A stretch of 64,000 bases of DNA. It comes from Vulcanimicrobiota bacterium. GTDB taxonomy: Bacteria; Vulcanimicrobiota; Vulcanimicrobiia; Vulcanimicrobiales; Vulcanimicrobiaceae. Shown piece after piece: positions 2,640 to 53,903 of this stretch. Each line of letters begins with the position of its first letter. Within the stretch, counting starts at the first letter, position 1. The notes below the pieces were generated by a model. The model was not told where the DNA came from. It searched no databases and worked only from the letters and a program-made list of their open reading frames with translations. The stretch is taken from NCBI GenBank assembly GCA_963717425.1, contig OY970335.1:1777226-1841225 (forward strand), given 5' to 3'. The position numbers and the translations under genes were made by a program.

Positions 2640-4019
<1,380 letters not shown>

Positions 4020-5294: not shown

Positions 5295-5345
5295 GGGAGG
5301 GCGAGGAAGTTGTATTCGGCGAGTTTAAAGGCGCTCTTCTTTACT

Positions 5346-28022: not shown

Positions 28023-28116
28023 GGGAGTGTACGGGTCTGGTGGCCCGCACGGTCTTCAAAATCGCTGAGGTCGTCGCAAGGCGACTGGTAGGTTCGATTC
28101 CTACACGCTCCCGCCA
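28023..28116 (+). tRNA. selC: tRNA-Sec (anticodon TCA) with encoded CCA.
   Basis: Folded by hand. 8-bp acceptor stem (GGGAGTGT/ACGCTCCC with one G-U). 6-bp D stem (CGGGTC/GGCCCG) with the 4-nt loop TGGT. Anticodon loop CTTCAAA. Long variable arm (GTCGTC-GCAA-GGCGAC). 5-bp T stem (GTAGG/CCTAC) with a TTCGATT loop. This is the bacterial 8/5 tRNA-Sec architecture. The anticodon stem pairs imperfectly in my fold. Confidence 0.85.
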
Positions 28117-28226: not shown

Positions 28227-29447
28227 CTACGCCTTCGCGGCGTCCGAGACCACCGAGTCGATCGCATCGGCGGCAGCAGTCTGGCCGTCGACGAACAGGT
28301 GACCGTAAGTGTCGGCCGTGATCGCGATGCCGCTATGCCCCAAGCGATCGCTCACGCGCTTTATGTCGACGCCCTGCGCTATCAAAATGGAGGCGGACGA
28401 GTGGCGCAGGTCGTGCAGTCGGAAAGGACCGATGCCCGCTTGTTTGACGACAGTCCCGAAGCGCCATCCGAACGTCGCAGGCGGCCAGACGGCACCGTCT
28501 TCGTGCCCGAACATCAAATCGAGGTTTTCGTAGCCGAGGCCAAGCTGTCGTCGGCGGAAGATTTGCGCATGCTGCGTCTTCCGGTGCTCTTGCAGAACGG
28601 AAAGGGTGAAAGCACCAAGCTTGATCGTGCGGGGGCGGTTGTTCTTTGGGGATTTGAAAGCTAGCTGGCCGCGCGTCTGCTCGACCGAGCGCGCGACGGT
28701 GAGGGTAGCGGTCTTCTCATCGAAGTCTCGCCACATGAGGCCAAGCAACTCGCCCCGTCTGGTGCCGGTCGTGAGAGCGACGATGATGGGCGCGAACATC
28801 AGGGTTCCTTTTGCTGCGGTGAGGAGTTTCGATGCCTCTTCGACGTTCAAGGCGCGCGTTTGAGGACGTGCCATGCGTGGGGCCTTCACGTAGTCGGCAA
28901 CGTTGCGCGAGAGAAGCCCCCACTCCATGGCGCGCTGCAGGCCGTTGTGCAGCACGCGCAAGACGTGCAATACAGTTCTCGCGGCGAGGGGCGTGCCTTT
29001 CCGCCCATCCTTCCGGGCGCTGCCGGCGCGCAGCCACTCCCGCTTGGCGGCATCGATGTGGGCTGCCGTCAGCTTTCGGAGACGAACAGCGCCGAGGGCC
29101 GGAACAAGTTGATGCTCGACGATTCCCTGGTAACGAATGTACGTGCGCAGAGCGAGATCCGCTTGAACCGAGGGTAGCCAACGTTCGAGCAGGTAGTCAC
29201 GCAGCGTTTCGTTTGAAAGACTCAGGAAGCCATCGGCGGCACGTATCCGAAGACGTGCGAGTTCTTGCTGAGCCTCGTCCTTGGTTCCCCTATACCGAAT
29301 TTTTTTCCGTGCGCGCTTCCCCTCGGCACCGGTGGTGCTGAGCTGCAGCACCCAAAGCCCGCGGCCGTCTGCGTCGAGTGGTCCGCAAGCATAGATGCTT
29401 CCTTCGCCGCGGGGTCGGCGGCGCGCCCGATTCTTAGGTCTACTCAT
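28227..29447 (-). CDS. int: Tyrosine-type site-specific integrase (phage integrase family).
   Basis: 406 aa. The C-terminal catalytic region has RLHDLRHSSASILIAQGVDIKRVSDRLGHSGIAITADTYGHL (R...HxxR...Y). It has an N-terminal SAM-like/arm-binding region and lies adjacent to a tRNA. Confidence 0.95.
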   Translation of the reverse strand: MSRPKNRARRRPRGEGSIYACGPLDADGRGLWVLQLSTTGAEGKRARKKIRYRGTKDEAQQELARLRIRAADGFLSLSNETLRDYLLERWLPSVQADLALRTYIRYQGIVEHQLVPALGAVRLRKLTAAHIDAAKREWLRAGSARKDGRKGTPLAARTVLHVLRVLHNGLQRAMEWGLLSRNVADYVKAPRMARPQTRALNVEEASKLLTAAKGTLMFAPIIVALTTGTRRGELLGLMWRDFDEKTATLTVARSVEQTRGQLAFKSPKNNRPRTIKLGAFTLSVLQEHRKTQHAQIFRRRQLGLGYENLDLMFGHEDGAVWPPATFGWRFGTVVKQAGIGPFRLHDLRHSSASILIAQGVDIKRVSDRLGHSGIAITADTYGHLFVDGQTAAADAIDSVVSDAAKA

Positions 29448-30352
29448 GGTGCTCCTTTCGATCGTAGAATCGAATATCGAATGATGTCCCTGAAAATGGG
29501 ATACACGAAATCAAATTGGTAATGGCGCCCGTCGACTTCGTTAGCCCAGCTGTCCATCAGAAGCCCGGCGACCTCCCAGCGAAGGAGCACTGGAACACCC
29601 CTCGCACCAGCCGCTTCGGCGTTTTGGACCGCTAAGGATAATGTCGCGCCGTAATTTTTTAAGGCGTCGGTCTCGTAATGCAGCAAGTCTGAGTGCCGCG
29701 CATTCCAAGCCTCTTCAATCTCGGCCGAGGCAAGTCGTCGCCGCATAGCTGTGACCAGATCGCGCGCCCCGTCGATGGCTTCGATGTAGCCGACGCCATT
29801 CTCGAAAATGTACGTCGGCGGCGTCTTAATGGGTAAGCGAGGTCCGAGGAAGACTTCGCCGTTTTTTAGCCGCCGGTGCTCAAAGAAACTGGACCATCCT
29901 TGGGCGTCTGCGACGTCTGCTTCCGCGAGTAGTGGCAAGCTAGGGATAATCTCGGCCGCAAAACGAGCGCCCTTAGTGGTTGTGCCAAGGGCTCGTATCG
30001 TTCGCAAGAAGTCACCGTAGTGACCGGCCGCTAGGACAGCAAAGAGACCGGACGCGTAGGGATGCGCCGTTTTTGTGGCGAGCGCCGCCCCAACCAGATA
30101 CGCGCTATCTGCGGTAGCTGGCGTCTTTCCTCGCAACCATTTTTTCACGAGAGAGCGAGGGCTGTTACTGTCCTCGACGTCTTCGCCTTGAGCAATGGCG
30201 CGAGCGTCGTTGTATCTCGCCGCAAGCCCGTCCGGGCCAACCCTTGCACTTTCGAGCGCGACGCCAAGCCACGGACCCCAGCGCCCAAGAACGAACTCCT
30301 TGATCTCGGCTTTCAGCTTCGACAGGGCAAGAGCTCCTTTGGATTTATTCAA
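29444..30352 (-). CDS. Hypothetical protein, translationally coupled to the integrase.
   Basis: 302-aa ORF whose TGA overlaps the integrase ATG (ATGA at 29444-29447). No family recognised. Confidence 0.6.
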   Translation of the reverse strand: MNKSKGALALSKLKAEIKEFVLGRWGPWLGVALESARVGPDGLAARYNDARAIAQGEDVEDSNSPRSLVKKWLRGKTPATADSAYLVGAALATKTAHPYASGLFAVLAAGHYGDFLRTIRALGTTTKGARFAAEIIPSLPLLAEADVADAQGWSSFFEHRRLKNGEVFLGPRLPIKTPPTYIFENGVGYIEAIDGARDLVTAMRRRLASAEIEEAWNARHSDLLHYETDALKNYGATLSLAVQNAEAAGARGVPVLLRWEVAGLLMDSWANEVDGRHYQFDFVYPIFRDIIRYSILRSKGAP

Positions 30353-30437
30353 TCTAGCATAGTACCCTAGTACCGTCTACTCCCATTTGGTATCATACGG
30401 GCTGATCCTGGACTTTATTTTAAGAAAGGCTGCGAAT

Positions 30438-30686
30438 ATGGCAAACTCGAGCCAGGGTGCACAGGCAGCTGAGCGCACGAACTCGCGCGTCACCAACCTC
30501 GCTTCTGATAAGCTGGCCTACACCATCGCGGAGGCTGCGGCTGCGTTGTCCATGGGAGAGACGAACCTGAGGCGCCTCGTCAAGGAGGGAGATATTGCGG
30601 CCGTTCATGTTGGGGTCCGGAAAAAGAAAATCCTCATACCCGCGGCCGCGCTTGAAGCGTGGCTTCATCGCGAGTCCGCTGCCTAG
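30438..30686 (+). CDS. Excisionase/AlpA-like helix-turn-helix DNA-binding protein.
   Basis: ATG 30438 is preceded by AAGAAAGG. YTIAEAAAALSMGETNLRRLVKEGDIAAVHVG...ILIPAAALEAWL matches the MerR-superfamily excisionase HTH pattern. Confidence 0.75.
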   Translation: MANSSQGAQAAERTNSRVTNLASDKLAYTIAEAAAALSMGETNLRRLVKEGDIAAVHVGVRKKKILIPAAALEAWLHRESAA

Positions 30687-30740
30687 TTAGCCTTAAGCGA
30701 AAGCGGCGCCCGACAGCGCCGCTTATTTGGGGGATTTACC

Positions 30741-31184
30741 TTGTCTCAATATACTGCGGCAGCGCAAGCGCGGCCTTCAATTGTTCACATCGACAACGCC
30801 CGGCAAAGGAAGCGGCGTCTTCGTTCCCTTCCGAGACCGCGCTCGGTCGCAGCACATCTGAGCCGCGAAAACCGATACACCCTCTTCGATCTCGGCTGGT
30901 TGCACAACTTGACTAAGCTAAACGAGCTTCGGGTTTATCTCGTGCTGGCGGCGCACGCGGATCATAACCGCGGGACCTGTTTCCCGAGCGAAGAGACAAT
31001 AGGCAGGGAGGCTAGAATCAAGGACCGCCGCGCCGTCAGGCGAGCTCTTCAAGGGCTCGAGGAAAAGGGAGCAATCCGGCGCGAGTTTCGCAAGATGGCG
31101 ACGACACTCTATGAAGTCCACCCGCCGCAATGCGTTGAGGCTGTTCGCCGGTTGTACCAAAAGCGGACCGGAACTACCCCCTAG
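30741..31184 (+). CDS. Winged-helix DNA-binding protein (HTH_36-like, as in phage/plasmid replication-initiator N-domains).
   Basis: LRVYLVLAAHADHNRGTCFPSEETIGREARIKDRRAVRRALQGLEEKGAI is the typical pattern of this wHTH family. An iteron-like array follows. Confidence 0.6.
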   Translation: MSQYTAAAQARPSIVHIDNARQRKRRLRSLPRPRSVAAHLSRENRYTLFDLGWLHNLTKLNELRVYLVLAAHADHNRGTCFPSEETIGREARIKDRRAVRRALQGLEEKGAIRREFRKMATTLYEVHPPQCVEAVRRLYQKRTGTTP

Positions 31185-31349
31185 GTCCGGGTAGAAAGTA
31201 CCCTCCAGAAGCGACCACGTTAAGCGACGCAACGAATTAAGGCTATGAAGGAGGGAATGCATTATGGAATTACCGATCTTACTTCAAAGAATTCTCCGCC
31301 GGCGCGATGCTCGTCGCGTTGACTCACGCGGACTTTGAGGCCGGACGCG

Positions 31350-31520
31350 GAGCAGACGGCTCTGGACGGGAGCCGAAGGTTTGACAGCTGAGCAGACGGT
31401 TCGAGAGCTGAGCTGACTGCTCAGCGGCTGAGCAGATGGTTCGGCGCGAAGCACACGGCTCGATCGCGGAGCAGCCGGTTCGACGAGCAGCAGCCGGTTC
31501 GACGCGCGAGATGGCTCGGC
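31350..31520. repeat. Iteron-like array: about 8 degenerate copies of GAGCAGNCGGYTCGR.
   Basis: Copies start near 31350, 31390, 31410, 31430, 31450, 31469, 31488 and 31508. After the 40-bp gap between the first two copies, the remaining seven are spaced 19-20 bp apart. Examples: GAGCAGACGGTTCGA, GAGCAGATGGTTCGG, GAGCAGCCGGTTCGA. Confidence 0.7.
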
Positions 31521-31759
31521 GTGGAGGTCGTGCCGACAAGCCGAGGACGCCCGCGTCGCCCAGTGAGGGAGGGTTGTTGTAAAGTGGCCACGCGGCTTTG
31601 GGGCTAAGCGTAGAGCGATCCGTAAACCTCAGCTCACCGCGACTCATCTCGTTGACTAAGCGCCGAAGTGAGGACAGCGGAGCGACAACGGCCGACTTCT
31701 TTTTGCCCTAGATCGGTACCAAATGGGCGGCTCTGCCGACCTCGGCGAATAGGAGGGCC

Positions 31760-32680
31760 GTGTCCAGAGAGCCTCGCCACCGAGCTGATCACAGCGCGGG
31801 TGAAATCCACGAAATGTTCGCTGGGGTGTTTCGTGAGTTAGCCATGCCGTTCGCAGACGAAGAGCGTGAAAGCGCGATGATGCGTATCGCGGTCGATGGA
31901 GTGCCGTTTGGCGAACGGCCGCCCGAATTTCGGCGCCCAGGTTCCAACTTTTACGCAACTCGTTATCTTGAAGCTCGAGCGGTACTCGGCATGCTCGTGG
32001 AACTCGACCTCGGTGGCGGCGTAGTTAACGTCATCCGCGGGGACTCACCCGACGTGACGGTCCAGTACGCCGATGCTCGCACCATTTACGTCGAGCACAG
32101 TATGGTGCTCGACGAGGGCGCGCAGCAGTACTCGATAGGTGTGGAAGACGCCAACGTCGCCGTTGGGGAGCTCGTCAAACGAAACCCGGCCGCACTGCGA
32201 GCGTTCGAGAGCGGACTGCTTACCGTGCGGCTAAACACGGTCGATCTCGACAATCGATTCGAACCGCTGCCGATTGCCCAAGAGATCGTTGTTTTGCTCG
32301 AGGGTCTCACGGAGCGCGTTGACCTCATGAGGGTCGACCCTGCGCAGATGCCCGTGCTCGCGTCCATGGACGCACGGATTTTCTACCGACCCGGCATCCA
32401 AGGTGGCGGCCCCATCGATACGCCAGCGTACCACGCGCGAATTAAGATACTAGAACCGTCGTTCAGAGCCGTCCTGGCCAAGAAGGTCCGGAAGGCGGCG
32501 CGTTACCCCGCGCAGTGCCATCCGCTATGGCTGCTGCTCACCGTAGATCTGCACTTCGACGATCCACCCTATGCGGAACGCATAGCCAAACACATCCTCG
32601 GGGAAGGCAACTTCGGACCGTTCGACCGCGTCGTGGTGCAGATATCCCGCCTCAACTCCGTCGTCGCGGACTCGCGATAG
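31760..32680 (+). CDS. Hypothetical protein. The start is uncertain (ATG 31814 is an alternative).
   Basis: 306-aa ORF with ordinary composition and no overlap with other calls. No family recognised. A D...EHS...K pattern hints weakly at a nuclease-like fold. Confidence 0.5.
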   Translation: MSREPRHRADHSAGEIHEMFAGVFRELAMPFADEERESAMMRIAVDGVPFGERPPEFRRPGSNFYATRYLEARAVLGMLVELDLGGGVVNVIRGDSPDVTVQYADARTIYVEHSMVLDEGAQQYSIGVEDANVAVGELVKRNPAALRAFESGLLTVRLNTVDLDNRFEPLPIAQEIVVLLEGLTERVDLMRVDPAQMPVLASMDARIFYRPGIQGGGPIDTPAYHARIKILEPSFRAVLAKKVRKAARYPAQCHPLWLLLTVDLHFDDPPYAERIAKHILGEGNFGPFDRVVVQISRLNSVVADSR

Positions 32681-32711
32681 CTCGCCCCTTGGAGCCTTGC
32701 CACATCGGCGG

Positions 32712-34286: not shown

Positions 34287-34732
34287 GACTGCAGCGCTCC
34301 GAGATGGAGCGCGTGCAGGGTCGCATCGACTGTCTCCCACGGAAGGTGAAAGCCGGCCGCCTTCAGCGCTCGCTGTGCCGCGGTCACATCGGCCTTGGTG
34401 AAGCCATAGGGCCAGCGGCTCGGGTCCGAGTTGCGCATCGGCCAATTCGGGTGAGCCGTGCCCTCGTACTCATTGATGAAGACCATCGACCGATAGCCCG
34501 AGGGTTTAGTAGCGCGGATAATCTCCTTGGCACGCTTGGGGATGTTCGGGAATCCGAAGCGCGCGCAGCGGTCGCACTCCAGACCCTCTTGCTCGACCAC
34601 GACCGCGCGCTCTTTCTCGATCCTTGTGCGACAGCGGAGAACGCACCATTCACAGTACAGGCGTCCGCGAACGTGATAGAGCGTCACGGGGAGCCGATAG
34701 GTGGGTTTTCGGGCCCGCATCTCAGAGTCCAA
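34283..34732 (-). CDS. Hypothetical Cys-rich protein.
   Basis: ORF coupled to both neighbours. Contains CEWCVLRC...CDRC, a possible zinc finger. No family recognised. The start is 34732 or 34720. Confidence 0.5.
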   Translation of the reverse strand: MDSEMRARKPTYRLPVTLYHVRGRLYCEWCVLRCRTRIEKERAVVVEQEGLECDRCARFGFPNIPKRAKEIIRATKPSGYRSMVFINEYEGTAHPNWPMRNSDPSRWPYGFTKADVTAAQRALKAAGFHLPWETVDATLHALHLGALQS

Positions 34733-35696
34733 CGCGCTGTGCGGCGTTCATCTGCCAAATCGTTGCTGGTCGGGTGTAGCGCTGAACCATCGAAAGGCTC
34801 TTGTGCCCAGTTTGACGCGAGATCTCAAGTGCATCCACGCCCGCCAAGGCGGCCGATGTCGCGAAGCCTGCGCGCAACGAATGACCTGCGAACCGAGCAG
34901 GGTCGAGCCCAATGCGTTGCGCATGGCGCTTGACGATCAGGGCGACAGCTGCGCCTGTTAGGCGCGTCGGCGCAACGTTGCCGCTACGATCGACCGAACG
35001 AAACAGCGGACCGTCGACAATGCCCGAGAGGTCGAGCCAGGCTTTCATCGCGCCAGCGGGGCAGGTCACCGGATTCGACCCGTTAGGAACCCCGATCAGA
35101 CGGCCTTCGCCTTCCTGATCCGTCTTCGACCGACGTAAAGTGACCTCGAGACCGTCAGCTACGAACCGGACGTCGCCGCGGTCGAGGGAAACCAGCTCGG
35201 ATCGGCGGAACGCGCCGGCGAATCCGAGCAACAAGAGCGCACGATCGCGGAGGTCGATCATCGCTTCGGTCAACGGTTGCAGCATCCGTCGAAGGTCGGC
35301 AGTTAGAATCGCATCTTTTCGGTCTTGCGTCACGCCCAGCGCGCGGCGAATGCCTGCCCAGACCTCGACCACTCGCGGGTGGGTAAATGGGCTTGGAAGG
35401 CCGCCTTTTCGGTGTTCTTGTCCGATCGCTGCGATGCGCCGGGCGATTGTAGCGAGCTTGTACTCTCGTGCGAGCTCGGTTAGGTACAACACCACCGCCT
35501 GTGGCTGAGCCGGCAGCGGCGAAACGCCGTGGGCACGACACCAGGCTTGAAACTGCCGAAGGTCGGTACGATACGCGCGTCGAGTACTCTCGGCGTTGGA
35601 GGACTCGGCGAACGCCTCAGCCTCGTCTCGAAGACTCTCGAGATGCGCGAGCCCGGCCGACGGAGCCGGAAGTATGGGGACCAACGCGGTGCTCAT
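34722..35696 (-). CDS. Tyrosine recombinase, XerC/XerD-like.
   Basis: 324 aa with an N-terminal SAM-like domain (TRRAYRTDLRQFQAWC). The catalytic region has LLLLGFAGAFRRSEL, GHSLRAGFATSAA and GHKSLSMVQRYTR. Confidence 0.9.
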   Translation of the reverse strand: MSTALVPILPAPSAGLAHLESLRDEAEAFAESSNAESTRRAYRTDLRQFQAWCRAHGVSPLPAQPQAVVLYLTELAREYKLATIARRIAAIGQEHRKGGLPSPFTHPRVVEVWAGIRRALGVTQDRKDAILTADLRRMLQPLTEAMIDLRDRALLLLGFAGAFRRSELVSLDRGDVRFVADGLEVTLRRSKTDQEGEGRLIGVPNGSNPVTCPAGAMKAWLDLSGIVDGPLFRSVDRSGNVAPTRLTGAAVALIVKRHAQRIGLDPARFAGHSLRAGFATSAALAGVDALEISRQTGHKSLSMVQRYTRPATIWQMNAAQRVGL

Positions 35697-38112: not shown

Positions 38113-41100
38113 CTAGGAGGACTGAATAGCGATCTGCTCAAGAGAGCCTAATCGATCGGGCACGCCAATCACGACGACATGCTTCAGTCTAACCCAGTCG
38201 AATAACGAAGTTCTTAGCACCCGACCGCCATTGAGCCAACCTGGGTCATTGTGAAGAAATGGATGTGCGAACACAATTCTGTGGTCCTTCGAAGAGGCTA
38301 TCGCATGGTGAGGACCGGAGCCGGTGAAGGTGTATGTGCCGTCGATCCGCGCCAGAGACGCCACCGCTGCTTCATAATCTACCTGTCGACCGGGTAACGA
38401 TTCTCCCTTCAAGAGGTGTACAAAGTCTAGGGCAAGACGCCAATCCAATAGTGGGTGCTTTTGGCGATTGGCGTAGCTACGTAGGCAGCGATAGCATGAA
38501 GAGTCACAACGATGCTGCGTGGCATCTTCGAACTTCTCGCCAAAAGTTTGGCCGAGCATGTCGGCCAACAGCGATTCAAAAAACCGTGGGTCGCCGATTT
38601 GCTCGGAAAAGCCGGCGCCATTCTCAAGTTCATCGGCAAGAAAGACGAACGCTCGTGGCCTTCTATTCTCATCGATCTCCTGCCAAAGGCCCTGCTCAAG
38701 CTCATGTGGATCGAGGTCCATTTTTGCGGTAGCTGCGGTCGCTATCAAAGCGGCCAATGACGTCCACGCGGCGCGGCGTGCGGGACTTGTCGGAGCGAGA
38801 TCGTAGGACCGCCGAAGGCGATTGCTCGCGCCTATCACGAGAACGTCGGTGCTGGTCTTGCACATCAGCGCTACATCGGAAAGGGGCTGTACGTACTCGG
38901 CCTTTTGCCATTCGAGGCGGCGAGTCTCGTCCTCATCTAGGATCCCGGGTTGACCGAGCGCGGACACGAATGTAAACGCGGCGCCGCCATTATCATTAAC
39001 AACATACACCATACCGTGACCCGTCCGAAGCTCCGCCTCGATGCATGGCTCTCCGGACGCGGGTACCGGCGCTCCGGTTAAACGTGCGTTGCCGCCTCTT
39101 GCGACGAACTCAGTCCCCCACTCATATGTTTGGGGTTCGTCCGAGTAATCGGTTCGGAATCCCAGTGGTTCAACCAGTGTGATCGGTTCGAAGGAGCCTT
39201 CGTTGCAGTATCTACACGGACGAAATGAGGTGTCATCATTTTCGGCTATCTTGCCACAGCTGACACAAACGTCTCTTACCTCTCGATTCCGGTATGGTTT
39301 GGTTATCGGTTGAAACGCTGGATCGTAAGCTACAAGCCCGATAGATCGATGGATCGTTTTGTCTCGAACGATCTCGGCTCCCGGCGCGAACTCGGCCACC
39401 GCCATTTTGAGCTGCCGTGATATCGCAGTTTCATTAGGTGGCCACACATCCTGATCTCTTCGGCTTGGGCCTCGCACATACAGCGGGCGCACTCGTGTGG
39501 GAAAGCCGAACAGGGGTAGGATACCAGCGTAGGCGAGCTCGCGACTCAGCTGAGCCCGACGTGTTATTGCCGGCTCTTCCGCCACCTCGATAGTATGCTC
39601 AACGAATTCATCGATCTCTGCGATGAGAGGTTGCTGCAGATAGGACAAGAGAGTCTGACTGTCGACACCTGTGCGATTTGACAGCCTTTCGGCTATTGCG
39701 GCAATGGTAGGAGATTGGGCGAGAAACTGACTAACGAAATCTTTATAGTAATGCCACTCTTCAAGCGTTGCGAACGACCCATGCGCCGTCGTGTCTGGCG
39801 AATCGTCGATGTCTTCGAGGTCGTCGAGAGCGACGGTCGGGCGTGGCATAATAGTCGATGCCTCATGAAACGCCCAGTACAGAGCCTCTTGTGCGGCAAC
39901 ACGCCTTGCGATACGTTGCGGGTCTCGTACGAGTTTTGGGGGCGGCGGGACATCACCAGTAATGCTCGACTGATTTGCAAAGTAGTGATCGTCGTGGCTA
40001 CGGCTACGGCAGACAGTCAAAGAGATCGCAATGGTTCTGCCTGCGCGCCCGGCTCTACCTACGCGCTGCTGGTAGTTCTGTCGCATCGGCGGCACGTTTG
40101 CCAGCATAACAGTCTGCAGAGTCCCGATGTCGATGCCCGCCTCCATCGTCGTGGTAACGCTCAGTACGTCAATGCCGTCGAAATCGAGATTTTCATCAGC
40201 GAGCGCCACGCCGCGGAAAAGCCTTTGGCGCTGCTGTGCGTCGCTCAATGGCGTCTGACCCGAAAGCTCCTCGGTGTGGAGGCGGGACATGTCACGTTCT
40301 TGAGCAACGAACGCATAATAGTCTTCTGACCGATGTTCGAACTGTTGCTCAGTCAAACGAAACCCACACGTTATGCAAATCTCCCCATAGGCACTGAGAT
40401 GACGTCGTGAGCAACGACCGCACTTCCACTGAGAACCACCGGGCGGCGCGAAGGCGAGGAGTCCCGCCTGGATGTACATTCCAGAAACGAGTATATCCGA
40501 TCGCTCAAGTATGTTATAGAGTTCGTACCCGACGGAATTCCAATCTGGCCGATCTAATGCTCTGGCTACGTGTCTCGCGTAGCGTTTTGCGTCGCCCCAA
40601 AGGCGATAATTTCCCGTACGCTCTGGCTTGTTCTTAGGGCGGCGCAACTCTTCAAAACGGCGCATCCCGATTAGTACCTGAAGCATGCCTTCTGCAAATG
40701 GCAGTATTTCTGGGCTCCCGCGTAGCGAAGTAGCAGGAACGATTCGAGCGAGACCGATATTTTGAAAGTCGCGACGCGCGCCGGAGCCAGCCAAGTCGGC
40801 TATCTCGTTACGGAGCCTCGTCCGAATAGCAGTCACGAGCTCAAGAGCACCTTCATCTAGGCGCGCTTCGTCTATGGTGTAGTGCTCAAAAGCATCCCTG
40901 CGCCACAGATGGTACCACGGCCGCTCTTGCGTGCCTACATCGTAGGTTTGGAGGGAACGATCGATTCCCGCCGGGTTCGTATGTGCCCGGGAAACCAGGG
41001 CACTCTCGACAGACTCCCGCAGCAATCTGAATGGCAGCCCGGTCGTAAAGCGACTGATCTTCTGTCTAATTTCCTCTGCTGCGGTCGCAGCTATAAGATC

Positions 41101-43677
41101 GGGAGTCTGCTCTAGCGCCAATACTTCTGCCGCCAGCGCGCTGTGCCTTGAGTAGAACTCGTCTGCGAGCCTCGCAGTGCTCAAATCAAGTCTTTCTCGT
41201 CGCGCACGACGTACGAACGCATCGAGGCGCTCGATGTCCATGCGTACGTCAAATAACCGACTTAGAATGGCCTGTCGGATCAAATCCTTCCAGTGGCCTG
41301 ACTCGAGATCTGCTCCCAGGGTCGCAGCAGCATTCCTGCTATCAGAGAACGCGATCAGCTGGCGGAGCTGCGCAAACCCATCACTCTGGTTCGCCTGTGA
41401 CACTCGTTCCAGCAAGGCATCGGCCAGTATCTGAGTAGCCTTGTGGAGACCAGTCGCTGAATCACGAATCACGTTGTTCCTAAAACGGCGCCGATCAGCG
41501 AGGCCGACGCGGTCTCCCGGAATTCTCAGTGCCTGGTTATAACCGTCGTCACCACAAGCCGGACAGTGAATGGGGTAATGCGGAAGCGATCTGCGGAACG
41601 CGGAGACTTGCTCAAAAACGCGTCCTCGGTCTCGGGGGGCGCGACGGTATCGCGGGCGGATGTCATAGATAAAGAATGGTGCATTTGTTGCACCGAGGGT
41701 TTGTGTGTCCAGTAGACCTGTCATTGGGTCAAAATTGGTTGGGAAGAAGCCAATCTCTAGTTGAACGTTAGCTCCGTCGTCGGTGCGATCATCGATTTCG
41801 AGATTTTCGCTCTCGGGCCGTTTCCCCATGGAAGGCCAAAGTACCGAATACGTCGCGATAGTGCGTCGCTGCTCTTTCTGATCGCCTGCAATTTGCCTCG
41901 AATCAATTGCAACGGCAAAGTGATGCTCGTCGTGCGGATCTTCCCCTGCGCGAATCGCCCAACCACTTATAAGTTGCTCGCCGCAGGTTTCACAGTAGAG
42001 CAGGTGCAGGATGCGGCCGCCACATTCGCACTCGAAGCGCGGTTCGGCGTAAAAGCGCCCAACATTCCGATCATCGTCGGTTTCGGACACACGGTCGCAC
42101 AGCACGTTCGTGCACACCCATCCTCCCGGGACCGTACGCACGAAGAGATGCGCCCTGGAGGGCAGCATCGGAACGTCGATCTGCAGGCGCTCGTCGCGCG
42201 TTCGCAATGCCTCTAGAAGCCCCGACAGAGCTATGCTACCATTCGGGACGTCGCCGAAGGCAGCGTCCTGCAATTGGGTCCATGACGCGGGACGCGGTTG
42301 ATCGGCACCGCCGGCGCGCGTCGACGCGTCCAAGGCGGCTTCAATTACTCCCGCGCTTTCCAAGGCTAGGTCCAATCGATCAGCACCCAGGGAGCGCGCC
42401 AGACGAAAGGCGTCCTTATCTCGGTCGAATTCGGCAAAGCTCGCTGCGGTATCCCGCAGGATGGTCGACTCTGCGGGGCTGTGGAGAGGAACAGAAGCGC
42501 AAGTCTCAAAGCTGCTTCCAGGCGCACCAAAGAACGTTTCGAGGAATGTCTCAGTGTCGCGTTCCGCTCCGAGGGATGCGCTGGTAGCGAGTATCCGGAG
42601 CTGTGGCGAAGTGGGGTCCAGGCCAAAGCGGCTCAGCACATTACGCAGTAGCATCGCGACTTCGCTCCCCATTGTGCCGCGATATGTGTGTAATTCGTCG
42701 ACGACCAATGTGAACACGTGGTCCGGATTCTGGACCAACCACTCGGCAGTCGCTGCGAACATGCCAGCTTCTCGCTGACGTAACATCATGATATTTAACA
42801 TCGCGTAGTTCGTGATCATGATATCCGGCGGGTGCGCGATCATGTCCCAACGACCACGCATCTCGGCTCCATCTAAGCGCTGGACGTAGGTGTTGGATAT
42901 TCCCGCATCGATCGTCGCCTGTTGTTGGCGAAGCCATTTGCGATACCGCCGCTCTGAAGCTCCGCGTTCCGCGACCACGTCTCCCGGAACGTCTCCTGGA
43001 ACCGGTGTCCGTCCAGTGTACCGCCCAAAATATATCCGATTATTATTTAGATGTGACCGGTACCACGCACGAGCATAGTCAGAATCCAATGCCTCTCGCA
43101 TTCGTCTAATCTGATCGTCTACCAAGGCATTCATCGGGTAGAGAATCAATGCCCGAACTGCAGCGTGACGCGCTTCGCCCATCCTCTGTGCCCGAAAGCG
43201 ACGATTACCCGTCCACCATTGCGTGTCGCTGTCATTTGGGGCCGCCCAGGGTCGCCGGATGGCCTCAGCCGCAATGTTTGCGACGATTGGGAATAGGAAC
43301 GCTTCGGTCTTTCCTGACCCGGTACCGGATCGCACTAGTGCGTTTCGCCTGTCTGAAGCCCCCATCCCGAAGAACGCCCGAAAGGCTTTGCCCTGATGCA
43401 GAAAAGGCCGACCGACGAGGTCCGAAAACAGTCCGGGTTGGATCAGGGTGGCGATATCTGAACCCGGCAATACTGAGTCCACTAGCTCTGCAATCGTTAA
43501 GTCGTCAGACTGATAGCGGGGGATGAGCTCTATCAGGGGCTCACCCGAAACGGCTCCCGGCCGTTCTAGCTCAACACGGCGCTCCCGGGCCACCGCTGAA
43601 CTCTTGAGTGCAAATGCCGTATCATAATAACGTAGAAAATCGCTCAAAAGGTCTTTCTGAAGCCGTAGGGGATTCAC
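38113..43677 (-). CDS. Giant DEAD/DEAH-box superfamily-2 helicase fused to a C-terminal DUF1998 (MrfA-type zinc-binding) domain; Druantia DruE-like.
   Basis: 1854 aa. Motif [13 protein letters not shown] (nt 43306-43326). Motif [13 protein letters not shown]. Motif [11 protein letters not shown]. Motifs [16 protein letters not shown]...[12 protein letters not shown]-terminal [25 protein letters not shown] (near nt 38470-38514). Several inserted CxxC zinc ribbons. The GTG start overlaps the upstream TAG (TAGTG). Confidence 0.9.
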
Positions 43678-44633
43678 TATGAACCTCCCGATTTGGCGAT
43701 CGGCTTTAGCGCCGGCAACTCATCGAGGGCGCTGAGCAGCTTCATCGCGATTATCCTAGCTATTCGTGCCGATACGCCGTCGTAGCAAGCGTAGCTCCTA
43801 TCGCCGAAAGCCTCACGATGGACCCCAAGAAAGCGTGCGCCACAGAAATGCAAAACGCGCTCAGCGAGAATTGGTATTGGCACACGAGCGTCGACGGCGA
43901 GTCGGCCGGCACCGTAACGTAGGAATCGCAATCCGGTCCGGCCGGCTGCGTACGCAAGAGCCAACTCCAGCTCAATGCGGCGTGCGCCTCGGTAGTCCAC
44001 ATAATAGTATTCGGCTGCAGAAAACTGTCTTCTTACGCGCAGCACCTGGAAATTAAGTTCAGAGTCGGCCCGGTCCGCCGCAGGGTCAAATGTTAATGCA
44101 ATCGGGTCCAAGAAATGGACATCGCCGTCACCTATAGCATCCGTCAAGCCGATCAATGGTCTTGAGTAAATGATCGAACCGAGCTGGGGCAGAGCGGAAA
44201 GGAGCGCCCAACCGGCGTCTAGCGAAGAGCGCTCGATTCGAAAGTATTCCGGCATTTGCTCAAGAGACGCTATGTCAGCGCCTTCCCCAGCCAGAATCTC
44301 CGATCGTGTGTACGAAATATTTCTTGTGACGATTGCGGCGTTGGCCGCGATTACAAAACCGTTCCGACCAAGTAAGACTGAGCGACTATCGTCGATTAGA
44401 CCGACGCCCAACAGCCGTCCTGGAACGACACGAATGATGGTCAAGGGCGGTACGCTCCACGAGCGGTTCCCGAGCCAGTCGAACTCTACGAGGCCCCTGG
44501 CGGCCAACGCGCGTGCCGCAAAATATTCATGGAGATTCAGGCCCGTAATGTCCTCAACTGCCCGTTTGAAAGTATGCCAGCTGCCGGCGCCCGTTCCTGC
44601 GAGAAACGACAGAAGCGCATCGCCATTCAGCAT
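43677..44633 (-). CDS. Hypothetical protein, middle gene of the helicase operon (318 aa).
   Basis: ATG 44633 overlaps the upstream TAA by 1 nt (TAATG), and its TAG overlaps the helicase GTG (TAGTG). No family or catalytic motif recognised. Confidence 0.65.
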
Positions 44634-46510
44634 TAGAGTAATAGCCCGCCGATAACAATCACCACTCGGCAATTCATGTATTCGTTGGTCTGGGCTGCGC
44701 CCGGGCTTGTAGTAGGGATAGCGATGCCACGAGCACGGCAGATGTCGAAGCCCTCGCAATCGTAGGGATCCATGCTCGATGTGACTGACCGAAGCGTCAG
44801 GCTAAAGGACTTACGGACACCGAGGACCTGCACAAAATGCATCCCCGGGGAAAGGTTAAATGGCAACCCATATTCTTTTCGACGAATTGCTGGTTCGGGG
44901 AGCATCCCGTCGTCGAGTGTCACACTTGCTTCCTCGATAGTAGGATGATCAAAAAAGATTTGCGGCGGCGTGGGCTGAAAGTATTCCGTGCCAACTCGCA
45001 GGCCCCGGCGAAACGTTACTCGAGCGCGATCTGGCGCCAAGAGATCCTCGAGTGCTGCGGGAATCGCTTCCCGCTCTGCGCGAGGTGCCCGTGCAGTGAC
45101 GATCGCAAGCTGCGGGGCCCCGTAACAATCACGGATCGCACTGTTCGCCCCCGAAATTGAGGCGAACGCTGCGCGGAGCGTTTCGGCAGTCTCTCGCGAA
45201 CAAAGCACGGCACAAAGGTCTCCAGCTCGTAGTTGGGTAGTCGCGATCCAACCTGTTCCATAGTTCGCGAATGTCACCACGTCATCCACAGATACCAGGC
45301 CTTTAGTGCCATTTGCTAATTCGTACATTATCGCGCCTTCATCCCATAGAAAGGACGTGGTGTCGGCGTCTTGCCAATCGTCCCCACCGATCCGACGTAC
45401 TTGAACGGACAGCTTCCACGGCAGCGCACCAATGTTCGCTCGGAGCACCAGGCGCTTTTCGAACGTTGTCCGATTACGATGTCGAGATGGCAGAGCCGCG
45501 ACGCGCCCGATGGCGTCTGCGATCGGGCTTATACGTTCCCCTTTTTGAGTCGAAATGTGCGATGACGCGCGCTCGGCTGGCCCACTAGTAATTCCCAAAG
45601 GATCGTGAGAAGCACGAAGCCCTCTTTCGGCGAGCTTTCGGTGCACAGAAGGCATGACCGTATCCTGAGGGTCGCAGCGATCCAGAAACCACCGCACGTA
45701 CTCCGTTTCGACGAGGTCGACGAACCCCTCGAAGAGGTGGCCCTCAGCGTGGACGAGTTCCAGCGTGTGTTCGAGAGCGTGAGAAAAAGCGTAGTCTCCG
45801 GGGTGCTGTAGCTCGTCGAGCATCATGTCGCGAATATCGCTCCGTGTCAGCTCGCGTCGACCCGCGCAGCGATGATCGAAGTAAAAGGCGAGCTGACGCC
45901 TCGAAGAAGCGCTGAGCAATACCTGAACTCGCGCTCGCCAAACATACTTTCCACCAAATGCACTATTGACGAGTAGGAGGCGCCCACGTCGACCCCCGCA
46001 ATTCACCTCAAGATAGTCTCCAAGCTCACGATAAAAGGACGTTGCATCAGAGAAGTGTGGGACATACGGAGTATCTCCCAGACCGAGCAAGTGTCCGAGC
46101 TGACGATGGAAGTATGCGCGCCGTCCTCCTTCGATCGCGTCGCCACTTTGTGAAGCCGCCAATGAAAAAACCGCTAATAATCCGACGTAATATGGAGGAT
46201 CGCGGTCCGCGACAGAGCGGCGTAACCAAGGGTGCCACCAGATGAATGGGTCGGCGTCGTGATGACGGATCAGCGCGCATATACTTTCCTTGAAGTTTTC
46301 AGGCGAGCGACCCATTTCCGTCGCGACCGAACGTAACTCACCGTCATCGAAGGACAGGATCCGGACAGCACCTGTGTCGGTTATAGGGAAGTAGCGCTGG
46401 AATATGCGATCATTCCACTCAAAGTAATCGGCGGCGTGGTCTGAATCGACGTCCGTTGCGGAACTCGGTTGGAGCGGCATCCCGTCGCGATTGGTCGGAC
46501 CAAGCGCCAT
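44633..46510 (-). CDS. Hypothetical protein, first gene of the helicase operon (625 aa).
   Basis: Long ORF with ordinary amino-acid composition, coupled to the downstream gene. No family or motif recognised. Confidence 0.7.
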   Translation of the reverse strand: MALGPTNRDGMPLQPSSATDVDSDHAADYFEWNDRIFQRYFPITDTGAVRILSFDDGELRSVATEMGRSPENFKESICALIRHHDADPFIWWHPWLRRSVADRDPPYYVGLLAVFSLAASQSGDAIEGGRRAYFHRQLGHLLGLGDTPYVPHFSDATSFYRELGDYLEVNCGGRRGRLLLVNSAFGGKYVWRARVQVLLSASSRRQLAFYFDHRCAGRRELTRSDIRDMMLDELQHPGDYAFSHALEHTLELVHAEGHLFEGFVDLVETEYVRWFLDRCDPQDTVMPSVHRKLAERGLRASHDPLGITSGPAERASSHISTQKGERISPIADAIGRVAALPSRHRNRTTFEKRLVLRANIGALPWKLSVQVRRIGGDDWQDADTTSFLWDEGAIMYELANGTKGLVSVDDVVTFANYGTGWIATTQLRAGDLCAVLCSRETAETLRAAFASISGANSAIRDCYGAPQLAIVTARAPRAEREAIPAALEDLLAPDRARVTFRRGLRVGTEYFQPTPPQIFFDHPTIEEASVTLDDGMLPEPAIRRKEYGLPFNLSPGMHFVQVLGVRKSFSLTLRSVTSSMDPYDCEGFDICRARGIAIPTTSPGAAQTNEYMNCRVVIVIGGLLL

Positions 46511-46969
46511 TACGATGCAGCGGGCCGGGCGCGTCTCATAGCCATGCTGAACGAGCCCACGTAGGAACGGGGACTATAAGGAGTGACTCGGATCGTGTTC
46601 GCCACATCCGAGCAGTTTGAAATCGATCAGCCGCCAAGCGCCAGTTATCTTATAACCTCAAAATCCGGACGCCTTCATCCGGTCGGTTGGCGCCGTCTCG
46701 ATGTGATGGGGGGCCGGCATACAATCCGACCCCAAGTGGTCTCCCGCCTAGGTAATTTGCGCTTATGGTCGCACGCTCGGGTCTTGACGCAGGGACTACA
46801 GTGCAGTTCCTCGCAGCAGCGCTCCGTTACCCAGGGACAACCCGTCGGGATGCTAGAACCGAATCAAAGCAAGCTGGCTTTCGCTAGGCGACCGGCTCCT
46901 TTCCTTCAGTCCGTTTCGTTTTGAAAAGGGGAACGATGCTACCGTGCATTCGTAGTAGGTTGAAATCCG

Positions 46970-49045
46970 ATGACTAGGTTCGAACTGAAGACGACTCTCT
47001 CGGTGCTTGAGGACCTCGGAATCAACAACTACACCAACGCCGCCGCCGTTCTCTCAGAGATCGTGGCGAATGCTTGGGACGCTGACGCTTCCAACGTCTT
47101 CGTTACGGTCAGCGGCAGCGGCGCAAGCCGCGTGATGACGATCGAAGATGACGGCGTCGGCATGACTGCTCTCGAGATCAATGAACGCTATTTGACCGTT
47201 GGCTACAAACGGCGCGATGCGCCGGGCGGAGGGCGAACTCCGTTGGGACGCGCAGTGATGGGGCGTAAAGGGATCGGCAAACTAGCCGTATTTTCGATCG
47301 CTTCGAAGGTCGAAGTGCACACCGTTAAGGGAAGGGCGCGGAGTGCATTCTCGATGGACCTAGCAGATCTTCGAGCGGACGCCAAAGCACAACGGCCGTA
47401 TTATCCCAAGGATCTCGCCTGTGTTAAGAACTTGACACGCGGTACGAGAATCGTTCTGCGCGGTATCAATGCATCTCTGACCCTCACCGACCGCTTCCTG
47501 CGACGGCATCTTTCCCGTCGCTTCACCATCATTGATGGCGCTCACGGCTTCTCTATTACAGTCAACGGGAAGCCTTTGACGCTTGCGGATCGGGAGTATT
47601 ATCCGAAGCTACAGTACATCTGGCATTATCACATGCCCGTCGTGCCGACTCTCGCTACAGCGGCGGAACAGGAAGAGGCACGCAACTTCCAAGTCTCGGT
47701 CCCCAATAAGAGCGGCAACGCGACTAAGTATGCGATATCCGGCTGGATCGCTACGGTAAAACAGCGTTCCCAACTGGCATCGTCGGATGACGACAACCTC
47801 AATCGCTTGTCTTTGGTCGTGCGCGGTAAACTCGCACACGAAAACTTTCTCGAGGAGTTCAGTGAAGCAGGGGTGTATGCAACTTATCTCATCGGAGAGA
47901 TGAACGCGGATTTCCTCGATATTGACGACAAGCCGGACATTGCAACGCCGAGCCGCCAGCGAATCGTCGAGAGCGATCCCCGTTACGTGGCTCTCAAGAA
48001 GTTTGTCCAGGCCGAACTGAAACACATCGAGTCGTCTTGGACCGCAATTCGCAACCAGACTGGACTTGAGTCCGCCCTGGAGATCCCAGCGATTTTTCAA
48101 TGGTACCAAGGCTTACAGCCCCGCGAGCAGATGATCGCGACAAAGCTATTGGGTCGGGTCAACACCTTACCGATTGAAGCCGACGAGCGACGAACGCTAT
48201 TTAAGCAGGCCGTTCTCTCGTTCGAGGTCTATAGGGTCAAGAGCAATCTCGACGCCCTGGAATCGATGTCATCTGACCAACTAGCTGCAGTCGGAGAGAT
48301 CTTCAAGAGTATCGATGACATCGAGGCAGCTCTTTACCTGCAGCTGGTTCGACAGAGGATCGGGATAATCGACGCCTTCGATCGCATGGTAGGTGAGAAT
48401 CAGAAGGAAGTCTTCCTGCAAAGCCACGTTTTTAACCACCTCTGGCTATTAGACACGGCTTGGGAACACGCCACTGAGAACGCTGTCATGGAAAAGAGCG
48501 TTCTCAAGATGCTCAAGGACGCAACAGGGAAGCCCACCAGTTCACTTTCAAGAGAGGTCGCTAGATCTCGCGTCGATATCCGATACAGGCTCGTCAGCGG
48601 TCGGCACGTGATCATCGAGCTCAAGCGCGCCAACAGGGTAATGAACACCGCCGACCTGCTGAAGCAAGTACAAAAATATGCGGCCGGAATGCGGAAGCTA
48701 TTGGCGGATAGCGGTGGCGCTTACGAACCATTCGAAATCATCGTACTGGTGGGGAAGCGGTTGAGCGATTGGAGCAACGATCCTGGGGCGGAGGAAGTCT
48801 CGCGGAAAACCTTTGCTCCGCATCAGACCCGAATTATGATGTACGACGAGGTGCTACGAAACGCGAAGAGTATGTATGGGGAGTTCGTCGCCAGAGAGAA
48901 GGAAGCATCAAAAATTGGGGCTATTCTCGAAAGCATCGACGAATCGGATATTCCCAAATCCGGTATTCTGGTACCAGGAGCCAATAAGAAGAGCCTTCCT
49001 CAGACTTCGGCGATGAAGCCGATCGTGCGCAAGAAACGACGATGA
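46970..49045 (+). CDS. GHKL/MORC-like ATPase (HATPase_c_3) fused to a C-terminal PD-(D/E)xK nuclease-like module; candidate ATP-dependent restriction component.
   Basis: Bergerat-fold motifs SEIVANAWDA, TIEDDGVGM and GRKGIGKLAVFS. C-terminal VDIRYRL...HVIIELKR (D at 48576-48578, E-L-K at 48617-48625). The stop overlaps the vsr start (ATGA at 49042-49045). Confidence 0.8.
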   Translation: MTRFELKTTLSVLEDLGINNYTNAAAVLSEIVANAWDADASNVFVTVSGSGASRVMTIEDDGVGMTALEINERYLTVGYKRRDAPGGGRTPLGRAVMGRKGIGKLAVFSIASKVEVHTVKGRARSAFSMDLADLRADAKAQRPYYPKDLACVKNLTRGTRIVLRGINASLTLTDRFLRRHLSRRFTIIDGAHGFSITVNGKPLTLADREYYPKLQYIWHYHMPVVPTLATAAEQEEARNFQVSVPNKSGNATKYAISGWIATVKQRSQLASSDDDNLNRLSLVVRGKLAHENFLEEFSEAGVYATYLIGEMNADFLDIDDKPDIATPSRQRIVESDPRYVALKKFVQAELKHIESSWTAIRNQTGLESALEIPAIFQWYQGLQPREQMIATKLLGRVNTLPIEADERRTLFKQAVLSFEVYRVKSNLDALESMSSDQLAAVGEIFKSIDDIEAALYLQLVRQRIGIIDAFDRMVGENQKEVFLQSHVFNHLWLLDTAWEHATENAVMEKSVLKMLKDATGKPTSSLSREVARSRVDIRYRLVSGRHVIIELKRANRVMNTADLLKQVQKYAAGMRKLLADSGGAYEPFEIIVLVGKRLSDWSNDPGAEEVSRKTFAPHQTRIMMYDEVLRNAKSMYGEFVAREKEASKIGAILESIDESDIPKSGILVPGANKKSLPQTSAMKPIVRKKRR

Positions 49046-49431
49046 GGCGTTCCTCGTCCGAACGCATGCGTCGAGTTGGCCGACGCGATACTGACTGCGA
49101 GTTGCGCCTTCGGTCTCGTTTGCATGCGATTGGATTTCGGTATCGAGTTGACTATTGCGTCGAAGGTTTGCGCACGAAACCTGATATCGCATTCGTCCGG
49201 GCAAGGGTCGCTATCTTCATCGACGGTTGCTACTGGCACGGATGTCCGGAGCATGGGACAATCTCTAAGACAAACGTCGGATTTTGGCGAGCGAAGATCG
49301 AGGGCAATCGAGAGCGGGATCGGCGCTTGACGAAGGACCTGACTCGGGCAGGCTGGCGAGTCGTGCGGTTGTGGTCACACGAATCTCTTGGCACCATGCT
49401 GGAACGAATTCGCGACGCATTGACGCGTTAG
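49042..49431 (+). CDS. vsr: Very-short-patch repair endonuclease.
   Basis: RMRRVGRRDTDCELRLRSRLHAIGFRYRV...KPDIAF...VAIFIDGCYWHGCPEHG...FWRAKIEGNRERDRR...GWRVVRLWSHE is collinear with E. coli Vsr as I remember it. Confidence 0.9.
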   Translation: MRRSSSERMRRVGRRDTDCELRLRSRLHAIGFRYRVDYCVEGLRTKPDIAFVRARVAIFIDGCYWHGCPEHGTISKTNVGFWRAKIEGNRERDRRLTKDLTRAGWRVVRLWSHESLGTMLERIRDALTR

Positions 49432-50576: not shown

Positions 50577-50636
50577 TGAGCATCTGATCGAGGCGGTTCC
50601 ATCCACTGCGATCGCTGGAAAGGCGATAAGTACTCC

Positions 50637-50680
50637 ATTAGAAGCGTTTTCCCTCGAGATTAGAAGCGTTTTCCCTCGAG
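50637..50680. repeat. Perfect 22-bp tandem duplication ATTAGAAGCGTTTTCCCTCGAG x2 in the dcm/UDG-like divergent intergenic region.
   Basis: Read directly: 50637-50658 and 50659-50680 are identical. The repeat lies about 60 nt upstream of the dcm start. Confidence 0.9.
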
Positions 50681-50968
50681 CGGCCTTGGCTGGGCCGCGT
50701 CGGGCTTCGCACGGGACTGAAATACGCCGAAGAAAGACAGCCCGGATCAGCCACGAATAGGGGCGCCGCGATGCTTCGTGCGAGTGACTGGGACTCTGTT
50801 GATCCGCGAAGCCTGCCGTCGTTCGGGACGCGCGCTCTCCAGGCGCCTTGCCCGTAGGCGTCCGCTCGCGGCCTCCCTGCGGGCCAGTCTCATACGATCT
50901 CGTGCTGGGGCTTCGGGGTACGGTCGGCGAAATGCGGGCCGCTTGTGAACACTGCAAACGGGAGCCCA

Positions 50969-51706: not shown

Positions 51707-51720
51707 GAACACCCAGGGAG

Positions 51721-52473: not shown

Positions 52474-52609
52474 GAGGTGAAGCTGGAGCGCTGCGCTAGT
52501 GCCGGACTAGCGTCGCTGACGGGGCACTCGGAGTCCACATCGCAAGCAATTCGAGCAGGCAGACGGCCGCATCCCTCGAACGCAGCCTTGTGCGCGTGCG
52601 ATCCGCGGC

Positions 52610-53857: not shown

Positions 53858-53903
53858 CTTTCAGCTCCCCATCCAAAGGGTGCTCAACCGCGACGGAGAC
53901 CGT

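Follow-up and report, generated by a model that had tools for sequence, protein, structure and literature searches.

Phased direct repeats beside a gene for a DNA-binding protein raise the question of what the repeats do for the element that carries them. Such a locus lies in a 64,000-nucleotide (nt) stretch of DNA from Vulcanimicrobiota bacterium (contig OY970335.1, positions 1,777,226 to 1,841,225 of the forward strand), the whole of which we call the window. Here an island of Candidatus Cybelea (Vulcanimicrobiota/Eremiobacterota), inserted at the tRNA-SeC gene, carries a winged helix-turn-helix (wHTH) gene of the Pfam family HTH_36 followed by an array of 20-bp repeats. An earlier reading of this sequence (the original prediction) took the repeats for iterons and suggested an autonomous replication or partition function, kept or inherited by the island. 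Our analysis indicates that the array is a genuine, lineage-restricted and slippage-prone repeat set on the cargo side of the HTH_36 module, and that a different cis element (31166-31300) is kept family-wide at or just past the 3' end of the HTH_36 gene. We prefer the reading that the HTH_36 module is the replication or control module of the island and that the 20-bp array is a dispensable accessory set of sites, to which we give a probability of roughly 0.4. In the following, W denotes the window copy of the locus, and L-numbers denote the related loci that were compared with W.

Tandem Repeats Finder called a period-20 array at 31370-31503 (6.8 copies, 70% matches). With its units placed in register, the array extends over 31346-31522 on the + strand as eight to nine direct repeats of 19-20 nt with the consensus CGCG-GAGCAGACGGTTCGA. 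The nine units start at 31346, 31366, 31386, 31406, 31426, 31445, 31465, 31484 and 31503, and the ninth (31503) is degenerate, with a 1-nt deletion. The motif GAGCAGNCGGYTCGR was found on the + strand at 31350, 31370, 31390, 31410, 31430, 31449, 31469 and 31488 with zero to three mismatches and with spacings of 20, 20, 20, 20, 19, 20 and 19. All five matches to it in the window at no more than one mismatch lie inside the array, as do the top six scores of a position weight matrix (PWM) of the unit across the 64 kb, and the array is the sole tandem repeat with more than two copies in the window. The distance from the stop codon of the HTH_36 gene to the first GAGCAG of the array is 165 nt. The original prediction of about eight degenerate copies at 31350-31520, about 165 nt downstream of a 147-amino acid (aa) wHTH gene, was therefore correct. 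Its spacing of 19-20 bp was also correct, but its placement of the sites on one face of the DNA was not; the mean period is 19.7 bp, not 21, which corresponds to a calculated rotation of about 45 degrees per unit on 10.5-bp B-DNA, so that the sites spiral around the helix. The array contains the at least three regularly phased direct repeats of 17-22 bp that characterize iteron-type origins. A coding repeat was rejected because the period of 19-20 nt is not a multiple of three. In agreement with the earlier view that the minus-strand open reading frame (ORF) at 31324-31647 is non-coding, this ORF and its counterpart in L002 are not homologous and have only repeat-encoded fragments in common, and the + strand ORF is broken in L007, where none spans the array.

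W, L007 and L002 have the array. L022 and L023 are 100% identical to W, and L023 is the sole other assembly across the locus in which array-length polymorphism could be looked for. W and L007 are 83.8% identical from the tRNA gene to W 31445, that is, through the first five units, and the homology ends inside the array. Units 1-5 of W are orthologous, position by position, to the 5-unit arrays of L007 and L002, and units 6-9 are extra. Between orthologous units, the high-information positions are 80% identical versus 60% elsewhere (p=0.048), which is a weak difference and not independent of the alignment. L002 has a different integrase gene (int), a different neighbouring gene (gene X, see below) and a different excisionase-type gene (xis), and the same HTH_36 gene, leader and array. 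HTH_36 is accordingly the only island protein encoded in all array-bearing loci, and Xis, Int or X as the binder of the array was rejected. Arm sites of Xis or Int are also not indicated by position, as the array lies 3.2 kb from the tRNA core. From these comparisons, the array appears to mark a recombination breakpoint.

The element at the 3' end of the HTH_36 gene was aligned in 11 loci, in which the HTH_36 proteins are 35-100% identical, and is better conserved than the HTH_36 gene itself. Its first part (31166-31203) consists of palindromic 15-mers of the form GGG-N9-CCC in a 24-nt phase, located with a script on W and its relatives. In W, the proximal palindrome GGGTAGAAAGTACCC lies at 31189-31203, and the distal site is degenerate. 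Each locus has two to four palindromes, whose positions relative to the box that follows are -28, -52 and, in L013, -78; the proximal one is fixed at -28 in W, L007, L002, L008, L006 and L013, and L018 and L019 have three to four at 24-nt spacing. The palindrome arms covary (TAG/CTA, TGA/TCA, ATC/GAT). The second part is a family-wide box at 31204-31255, composed of TCCAGAAG, AAGCGACCACGTT (31209-31221), AAGCGACGCAACG (31222-31234) and GGCTATGAAGGAGGG (31241-31255) according to the 11-locus alignment. Its layout across the family is CCAGAAG, two 13-nt direct repeats, GGCTAnGA(A/G)GGAG and then an AT-rich stretch, and the variable cores of the two repeats change together (AAGCGAC / AAGAGAT / AAGAGAA). 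The box sequence is unique within the window. In W, the composition profile has an AT-rich trough at 31225-31299 (42-44% GC; the genome has about 60%), between the HTH_36 gene and the array and about 50 nt upstream of the latter, and AT-rich stretches follow the box in other loci too. The arrangement of ori-lambda, in which dyad repeats at the initiator gene precede an AT-rich tract, was thus found in the 3' element and not in the array.

The 3' element is independent of the reading frame, being coding in some members and past the stop codon in W, L002 and L015. In blastn comparisons, it is the sole segment of W that aligns with L018 and gives the best match with L014, where it is inverted and points back at the HTH_36 gene. 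Elsewhere it was located at L007 10428-10510, L013 5320-5430, L018 3695-3840, L019 618-760 and L014 3845-3910 (inverted). These alignments show that the HTH_36 protein and the 3' element travel as a conserved cis-trans pair, and 31166-31300 is plausibly the core site of the HTH_36 module. The array units are not copies of the box or the palindromes (best PWM score -5.5 bits; local alignment p = 0.44 versus shuffles), and we infer that, as a site of the wHTH protein, the array is neither primary nor defining. Scans of viral contigs with the box and the unit gave nothing and one chance match in a phage coding region. A structured RNA in the box region was rejected, as there was no fold signal (z = -0.1). 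The box also coincides with a recombination joint. L002 and L007, whose islands belong to one assembly, have an identity of only 58-78% over the HTH_36 gene and of 92-100% from the box onward for more than 8 kb (joint at L002 2839-2940 and L007 10440-10540), with leader, array and cargo near-identical beyond it; because of this jump in identity, we regard the box as the joint between core and cargo.

The HTH_36 gene of W (30741-31184, + strand, TTG start) encodes 147 aa and matches Pfam HTH_36 with an E of 1.6e-10. The PHROG matches of the protein are all to replication initiation, O-like or DnaD-like families and are confined to aa 56-137. These matches are remote and concern the DNA-binding domains of phage and plasmid initiators; they are the sole functional hints to the role of the protein. 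An AlphaFold (AF2) model has one confident winged helix (aa 50-127) with disordered tails on either side, and a sequence search of the PDB found nothing below E = 0.03. Note that the protein of W is missing from the protein database, since gene callers chose an antisense ORF or nothing: in the public record L023, an antisense 114-aa ORF (30918-31262, - strand) was called instead of the HTH_36 gene, and in L022 nothing was called. Such gene-calling misses in both public records suggest that the HTH_36 family is under-represented in protein databases.

The position of the gene in the island is consistent with replication. L025 has tRNA-SeC, int, X and xis as in W at 84% nt identity, and in the HTH_36 slot it has a 634-aa RepB_primase+AAA_25 protein (3526-5430, - strand), which also has a PHROG DNA-primase match. 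The slot directly after xis thus appears, from these gene orders, to hold replication modules in related islands. A conserved GC hairpin, AGCGGCGC-N6-GCGCCGCT with a T tract (30702-30729, + strand), lies between xis and the HTH_36 gene. The homologies of W with L002 and with L008 begin at 30700 and that with L025 ends at 30675, and by these edges the hairpin seems to mark the left edge of the exchangeable HTH_36 module. The hairpin and its T tract may be a terminator or attenuator.

The P1 incA and F incC regions contain phased direct repeats of about 19 bp downstream of the initiator gene, which are dispensable for initiation. The array of W likewise consists of phased repeats of about 19-20 bp downstream of a putative initiator gene, but in P1 and F the control and origin iterons share one sequence, whereas the units of W are unlike the conserved element. 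In phage lambda, the origin lies inside the O gene and comprises 19-bp inverted-repeat iterons and an AT-rich tract (PMC7466680). Both systems have an N-terminal winged helix of the O-like/HTH_36 kind and dyad repeats in the gene of the protein itself, then an AT tract. They differ in that the W protein is without the C-terminal domain, no P-like loader is present and the next gene is the unrelated 306-aa gene; the repeats of W are at the 3' end of the gene or past its stop codon rather than in mid-gene, there is an extra bipartite box, and the 20-bp array has no counterpart in lambda. In the mobilizable integrated island SGI1, an operon of S004 (HTH_17) and rep is followed by an iteron oriV, whose region has four 17-bp GC-rich iterons and AT-rich regions immediately downstream of rep, and alternative rep modules swap in SGI1-like islands (PMC7433901). 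The W island resembles it in having int and xis, an HTH_17 gene followed by the putative initiator, and repeats with AT-rich regions downstream, and the replacement of rep modules between sibling islands parallels W versus L025. In contrast, W lacks both the RepA_C domain of the SGI1 Rep and the DnaA box of its oriV, and SGI1 replication was shown by experiment, whereas replication of the W island is putative. In phage-inducible chromosomal islands (PICIs), xis and pri-rep are followed by an origin 3' of rep, in which an AT-rich region has one set of iterons on either side (PMC6092414). In W, int(-), X(-), xis(+), HTH_36(+) and the repeats come in an order that parallels that of int, divergent regulator, xis, rep and ori in PICIs and Staphylococcus aureus pathogenicity islands (SaPIs), X and HTH_36 being only the putative regulator and rep; the trough of W separates the 20-bp array from the palindromes and the box. 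The family member L013 also has a terS-like gene, as PICIs do: directly after the element, its ORF at 5450-5803 (- strand) has a PHROG terminase small subunit match (E 2e-22), which hints at a phage-satellite lifestyle in this distant tRNA-SeC member. Unlike PICIs and SaPIs, however, the W window is without pri-rep helicase, capsid-remodelling or packaging genes (no terS or capsid morphogenesis gene, as expected of a satellite, was seen among the scanned window ORFs), and the two repeat sets of W are unrelated in sequence, the second being absent in siblings. Finally, plasmid Reps with HTH_36 domains occur with 18-39-bp iteron-like oriV repeats in the Paracoccus plasmids pAES7, pMARC3 and pMOS2 (PMC3832669), a combination of HTH_36 domain and iteron-like direct repeats that W has also. 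Our tblastn search of a plasmid collection gave three weak Firmicute matches only and no Paracoccus plasmid.

Under the reading of a replication or control module with an accessory array, the HTH_36 protein would bind the palindromes and/or the box after excision of the island and would then act as an origin-recognition factor or as a switch of the module, the AT-rich stretch serving as the melting or promoter region. The array would be a second, lineage-restricted phased set beyond the trough, comparable to the second iterons of PICIs or the control iterons of P1 and F. It would probably titrate or position a DNA-binding protein, may grow and shrink by slippage and serve as a recombination breakpoint, and would not be needed by siblings. 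A bolder version, in which a single-winged-helix minimal initiator of about 150 aa, whose own gene ends in an origin made up of phased palindromes, a bipartite box and an AT-rich tract, drives the replication of excised Vulcanimicrobiota/Eremiobacterota defence islands, the ultra-conserved box being also the joint for swapping core and cargo and the array a tunable copy-control or titration set, seems to us distinctly unlikely.

Several observations weigh against the preferred reading. The array is absent from L005/L008, L006, L013, L014, L015, L016, L018 and L019, and so is not co-inherited with the HTH_36 gene across relatives. In L005/L008, the HTH_36 protein has the recognition helix of W at 71-75% aa identity, and the 306-aa gene is the same, yet leader and array are missing; L006 is likewise without both. 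The original prediction had named the absence of the array from homologous islands as grounds for its own refutation, and this absence was found in these close and distant members but not in L007 and L002. Orthologous units of W and L007 are only 67% identical, versus 76-78% for the element and the leader, and this faster divergence than the flanks fits weak or no constraint. Binding of one protein to both array and 3' element is doubtful, because the units are unlike the palindromes and the box. HTH_36 is the only known domain in 19 of 19 family members (147-168 aa), so that the protein has neither two winged-helix domains nor a helicase-recruiting domain, as a Rep would, and a Foldseek search with its model found generic winged helices only (MarR, Fur) at E of about 1e-2; this structure search did not discriminate and was dropped as a clue to the identity of the protein. 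No helicase or loader near the HTH_36 gene is encoded in the window, and no DnaA box (TTWTNCACA, the canonical consensus, assumed for this phylum) was found with up to one mismatch in 31100-31760. The argument from the slot is indirect, as L025 replaces the whole HTH_36-to-214-aa segment and not one gene. The HTH_36 gene of W is itself a truncated copy. Relative to L007 and other homologues, it has a 1-nt deletion that leads to a premature TAG (region 31150-31184), and a conceptual translation has a remnant of the conserved C-terminal tail (…PGRKYPPEATTLSDATN*) out of frame at 31166-31240 (+ strand). In the -1 frame of W, this tail, …PPEATTLSDATN, can be read directly past the CAAAAG run, and it is in frame in P0001, P0002 and P0004; the L002 gene was truncated independently of that of W. 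On the link to a replication initiator, the PHROG matches, the AT-rich trough and the primase-helicase in the L025 slot thus agree with the original prediction, and the single wHTH domain and the missing DnaA box do not.

One alternative is a neutral minisatellite, in which a 20-nt leader segment expanded by slippage or unequal recombination at the module junction and persists with no function of its own. The patchy presence of the array among close siblings and the copy number of five versus eight to nine agree with it, and units 7 and 8, which are 89% alike, suggest a recent duplication. The divergence in excess of the flanks (67% and 48% identity versus 76-78%), the end of the W/L007 homology inside the array and the lack of relationship between the units and the conserved element are also as expected from such an origin. 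Furthermore, a 50-nt sequence is directly duplicated on the two sides of the array (31310-31360 and 31643-31693); a repeat search showed that the downstream copy (+ strand) contains the TTGACT leader segment and one degenerate unit, GCGGAGCGACAACGG. On the other hand, the array is older than the W/L007 split (16% nt divergence), with phase and near-consensus units kept in both, it is the sole repeat of this kind in 64 kb, and it sits where functional repeat sets typically do, just past an AT-rich trough and next to a gene for a DNA-binding protein (PMC6092414, PMC7433901). We regard a minisatellite as possible, if doubtful.

Control of the cargo without replication is a further alternative. 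The first cargo gene would then be regulated by the HTH_36 protein (or Xis), with the element as promoter or operator, and the array, between this promoter and the cargo, would supply stacked operator or roadblock sites or form part of a transcribed 5' leader. Nearly every locus has its first variable cargo gene after the element and in the same direction, and the protein is a lone wHTH, as many regulators are. An AT-rich stretch and TTGACT precede the array in W, L007 and L002, the second TTGACT copy precedes the 306-aa gene, and the array of L007 lies 50 nt upstream of a Zn-ribbon ORF, for which no homologues were found. The leader common to L007 and L002 (31263-31345, + strand; 78% identity to L007 in the alignment) holds TTGACT at 31319-31324 and, at 31303-31318, a hairpin that reads CGCGATG-CT-CGTCGCG in W, CGTAACG-CT-CGTTACG in L007 and CGTGACG-CT-CGTTACG in L002. 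The two compensatory pairs and the G-U intermediates in these three sequences suggest a + strand RNA structure. The array also folds better than shuffled sequence on the + strand (z = -3.2), with z = -1.1 on the - strand. However, the predicted RNA hairpins of the array are not kept in L007 as read by eye from the alignment, and Rfam, searched at E up to 1, returned tRNA-SeC only. A consensus scan found no sigma-70-type promoter on the + strand in this region, the element is inverted in L014 and faces the HTH_36 gene, and L008 has the same 306-aa gene without the array. The unit motif occurs nowhere else in the island, so that there is no regulon; a lone site resembling the unit, at 30368 in the promoter region of X and xis (9.1 bits), was dropped, as it is not conserved in L007. 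We consider control of the cargo alone rather unlikely.

That the 20-bp repeats themselves are theta-origin iterons or a centromere, and the primary site of the wHTH protein, agrees with their unit length, copy number and phasing, which are like those of plasmid iterons, with their location downstream of a putative initiator as in SGI1 (PMC7433901), with the adjoining AT-rich trough and with TubR-type wHTH centromere binders among the weak fold matches, but is very improbable, given that a different repeat set is conserved with the gene, that 31100-31760 has no DnaA box, that the 19.7-bp period drifts around the helix and that no partition NTPase was seen in the module or the visible island. 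In particular, no ParA, ParM or TubZ partner was found in the module or among the scanned ORFs, so a partition role for the array is unlikely and this part of the original prediction was not supported.

The rest of the island is consistent with integration at a tRNA gene without visible conjugation genes, as had been predicted; no conjugation, helicase, primase or ParA genes were seen among the scanned window ORFs. The integration site, on the attL side, is the tRNA-SeC gene at 28023-28116 on the + strand (ARAGORN; Rfam RF01852, 70.5 bits), and the L007 and L013 islands also sit at tRNA-SeC. Two assemblies of identical sequence (Logan SRR28060712, ERR10755948) end at 28087/28089, in the T-arm of tRNA-SeC, which suggests that the att core is located there and that the junction was heterogeneous in those samples. 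The likeness of GGTTCGA in the array unit to the tRNA T-loop and att core (3.9 bits at 28083) was taken as chance. No attR copy of the tRNA end was found in the window, and the island end is therefore not defined. A 406-aa tyrosine integrase (28227-29447, - strand; Pfam Phage_integrase and Phage_int_SAM_3) is followed by gene X (29444-30352, - strand), which encodes 302 aa, always stands between int and xis and has no match in Pfam, PHROG, NCBIfam or PADLOC. Gene X has orthologues in the same position in L025 (78%) and L026 (62%), and the X genes of L002 and L005 are unrelated. The excisionase-type HTH_17 gene (xis/AlpA-like) is at 30387-30686 on the + strand (Pfam HTH_17, 7.5e-11; TIGR01764 excise; PHROG excisionase).

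Beyond the array, W 31520-31723 has no counterpart in L007 or L008, and W 31724-32690 aligns with L008 at 82% by blastn. This segment includes the first cargo gene (31760-32680, + strand, 306 aa), which has no family matches and is common to the array-less L008/L005. A second tyrosine recombinase lies inside the island (34722-35696, - strand) in a neighbourhood kept in L008 and L025 (75% nt), and its presence suggests that the island may be composite or nested. The cargo at 38113-56108 includes a Druantia-like set (DruE of 1854 aa; weaker DruL-like and DruF-like matches). Further defence cargo comprises a type II restriction endonuclease with a C5 methyltransferase and IetA/IetS, with an HNH endonuclease and an RHS protein beyond. 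Within the C5-methyltransferase ORF, in the 5' part that precedes the methylase domain, a 22-bp sequence, ATTAGAAGCGTTTTCCCTCGAG, is perfectly duplicated in tandem (two copies, 50637-50680); this duplication could act as a switch of reading frame or reflect recent slippage.

The mobile elements of Vulcanimicrobiota/Eremiobacterota are almost unstudied, and the present island holds Druantia-like, restriction-modification and IetAS defence genes. The array itself is of modest interest, as an optional repeat set whose main use is to mark strains and sites of recombination. Together with the HTH_36 gene, it would be, at a modest estimate, a further member of the xis-rep-ori type of island modules, for which the 3' element seems the more interesting lead. 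Should the HTH_36 module prove to act in replication or control, it would reveal how defence islands amplify after excision and how they exchange cargo, since it is exactly at the box that different cores join identical cargo.

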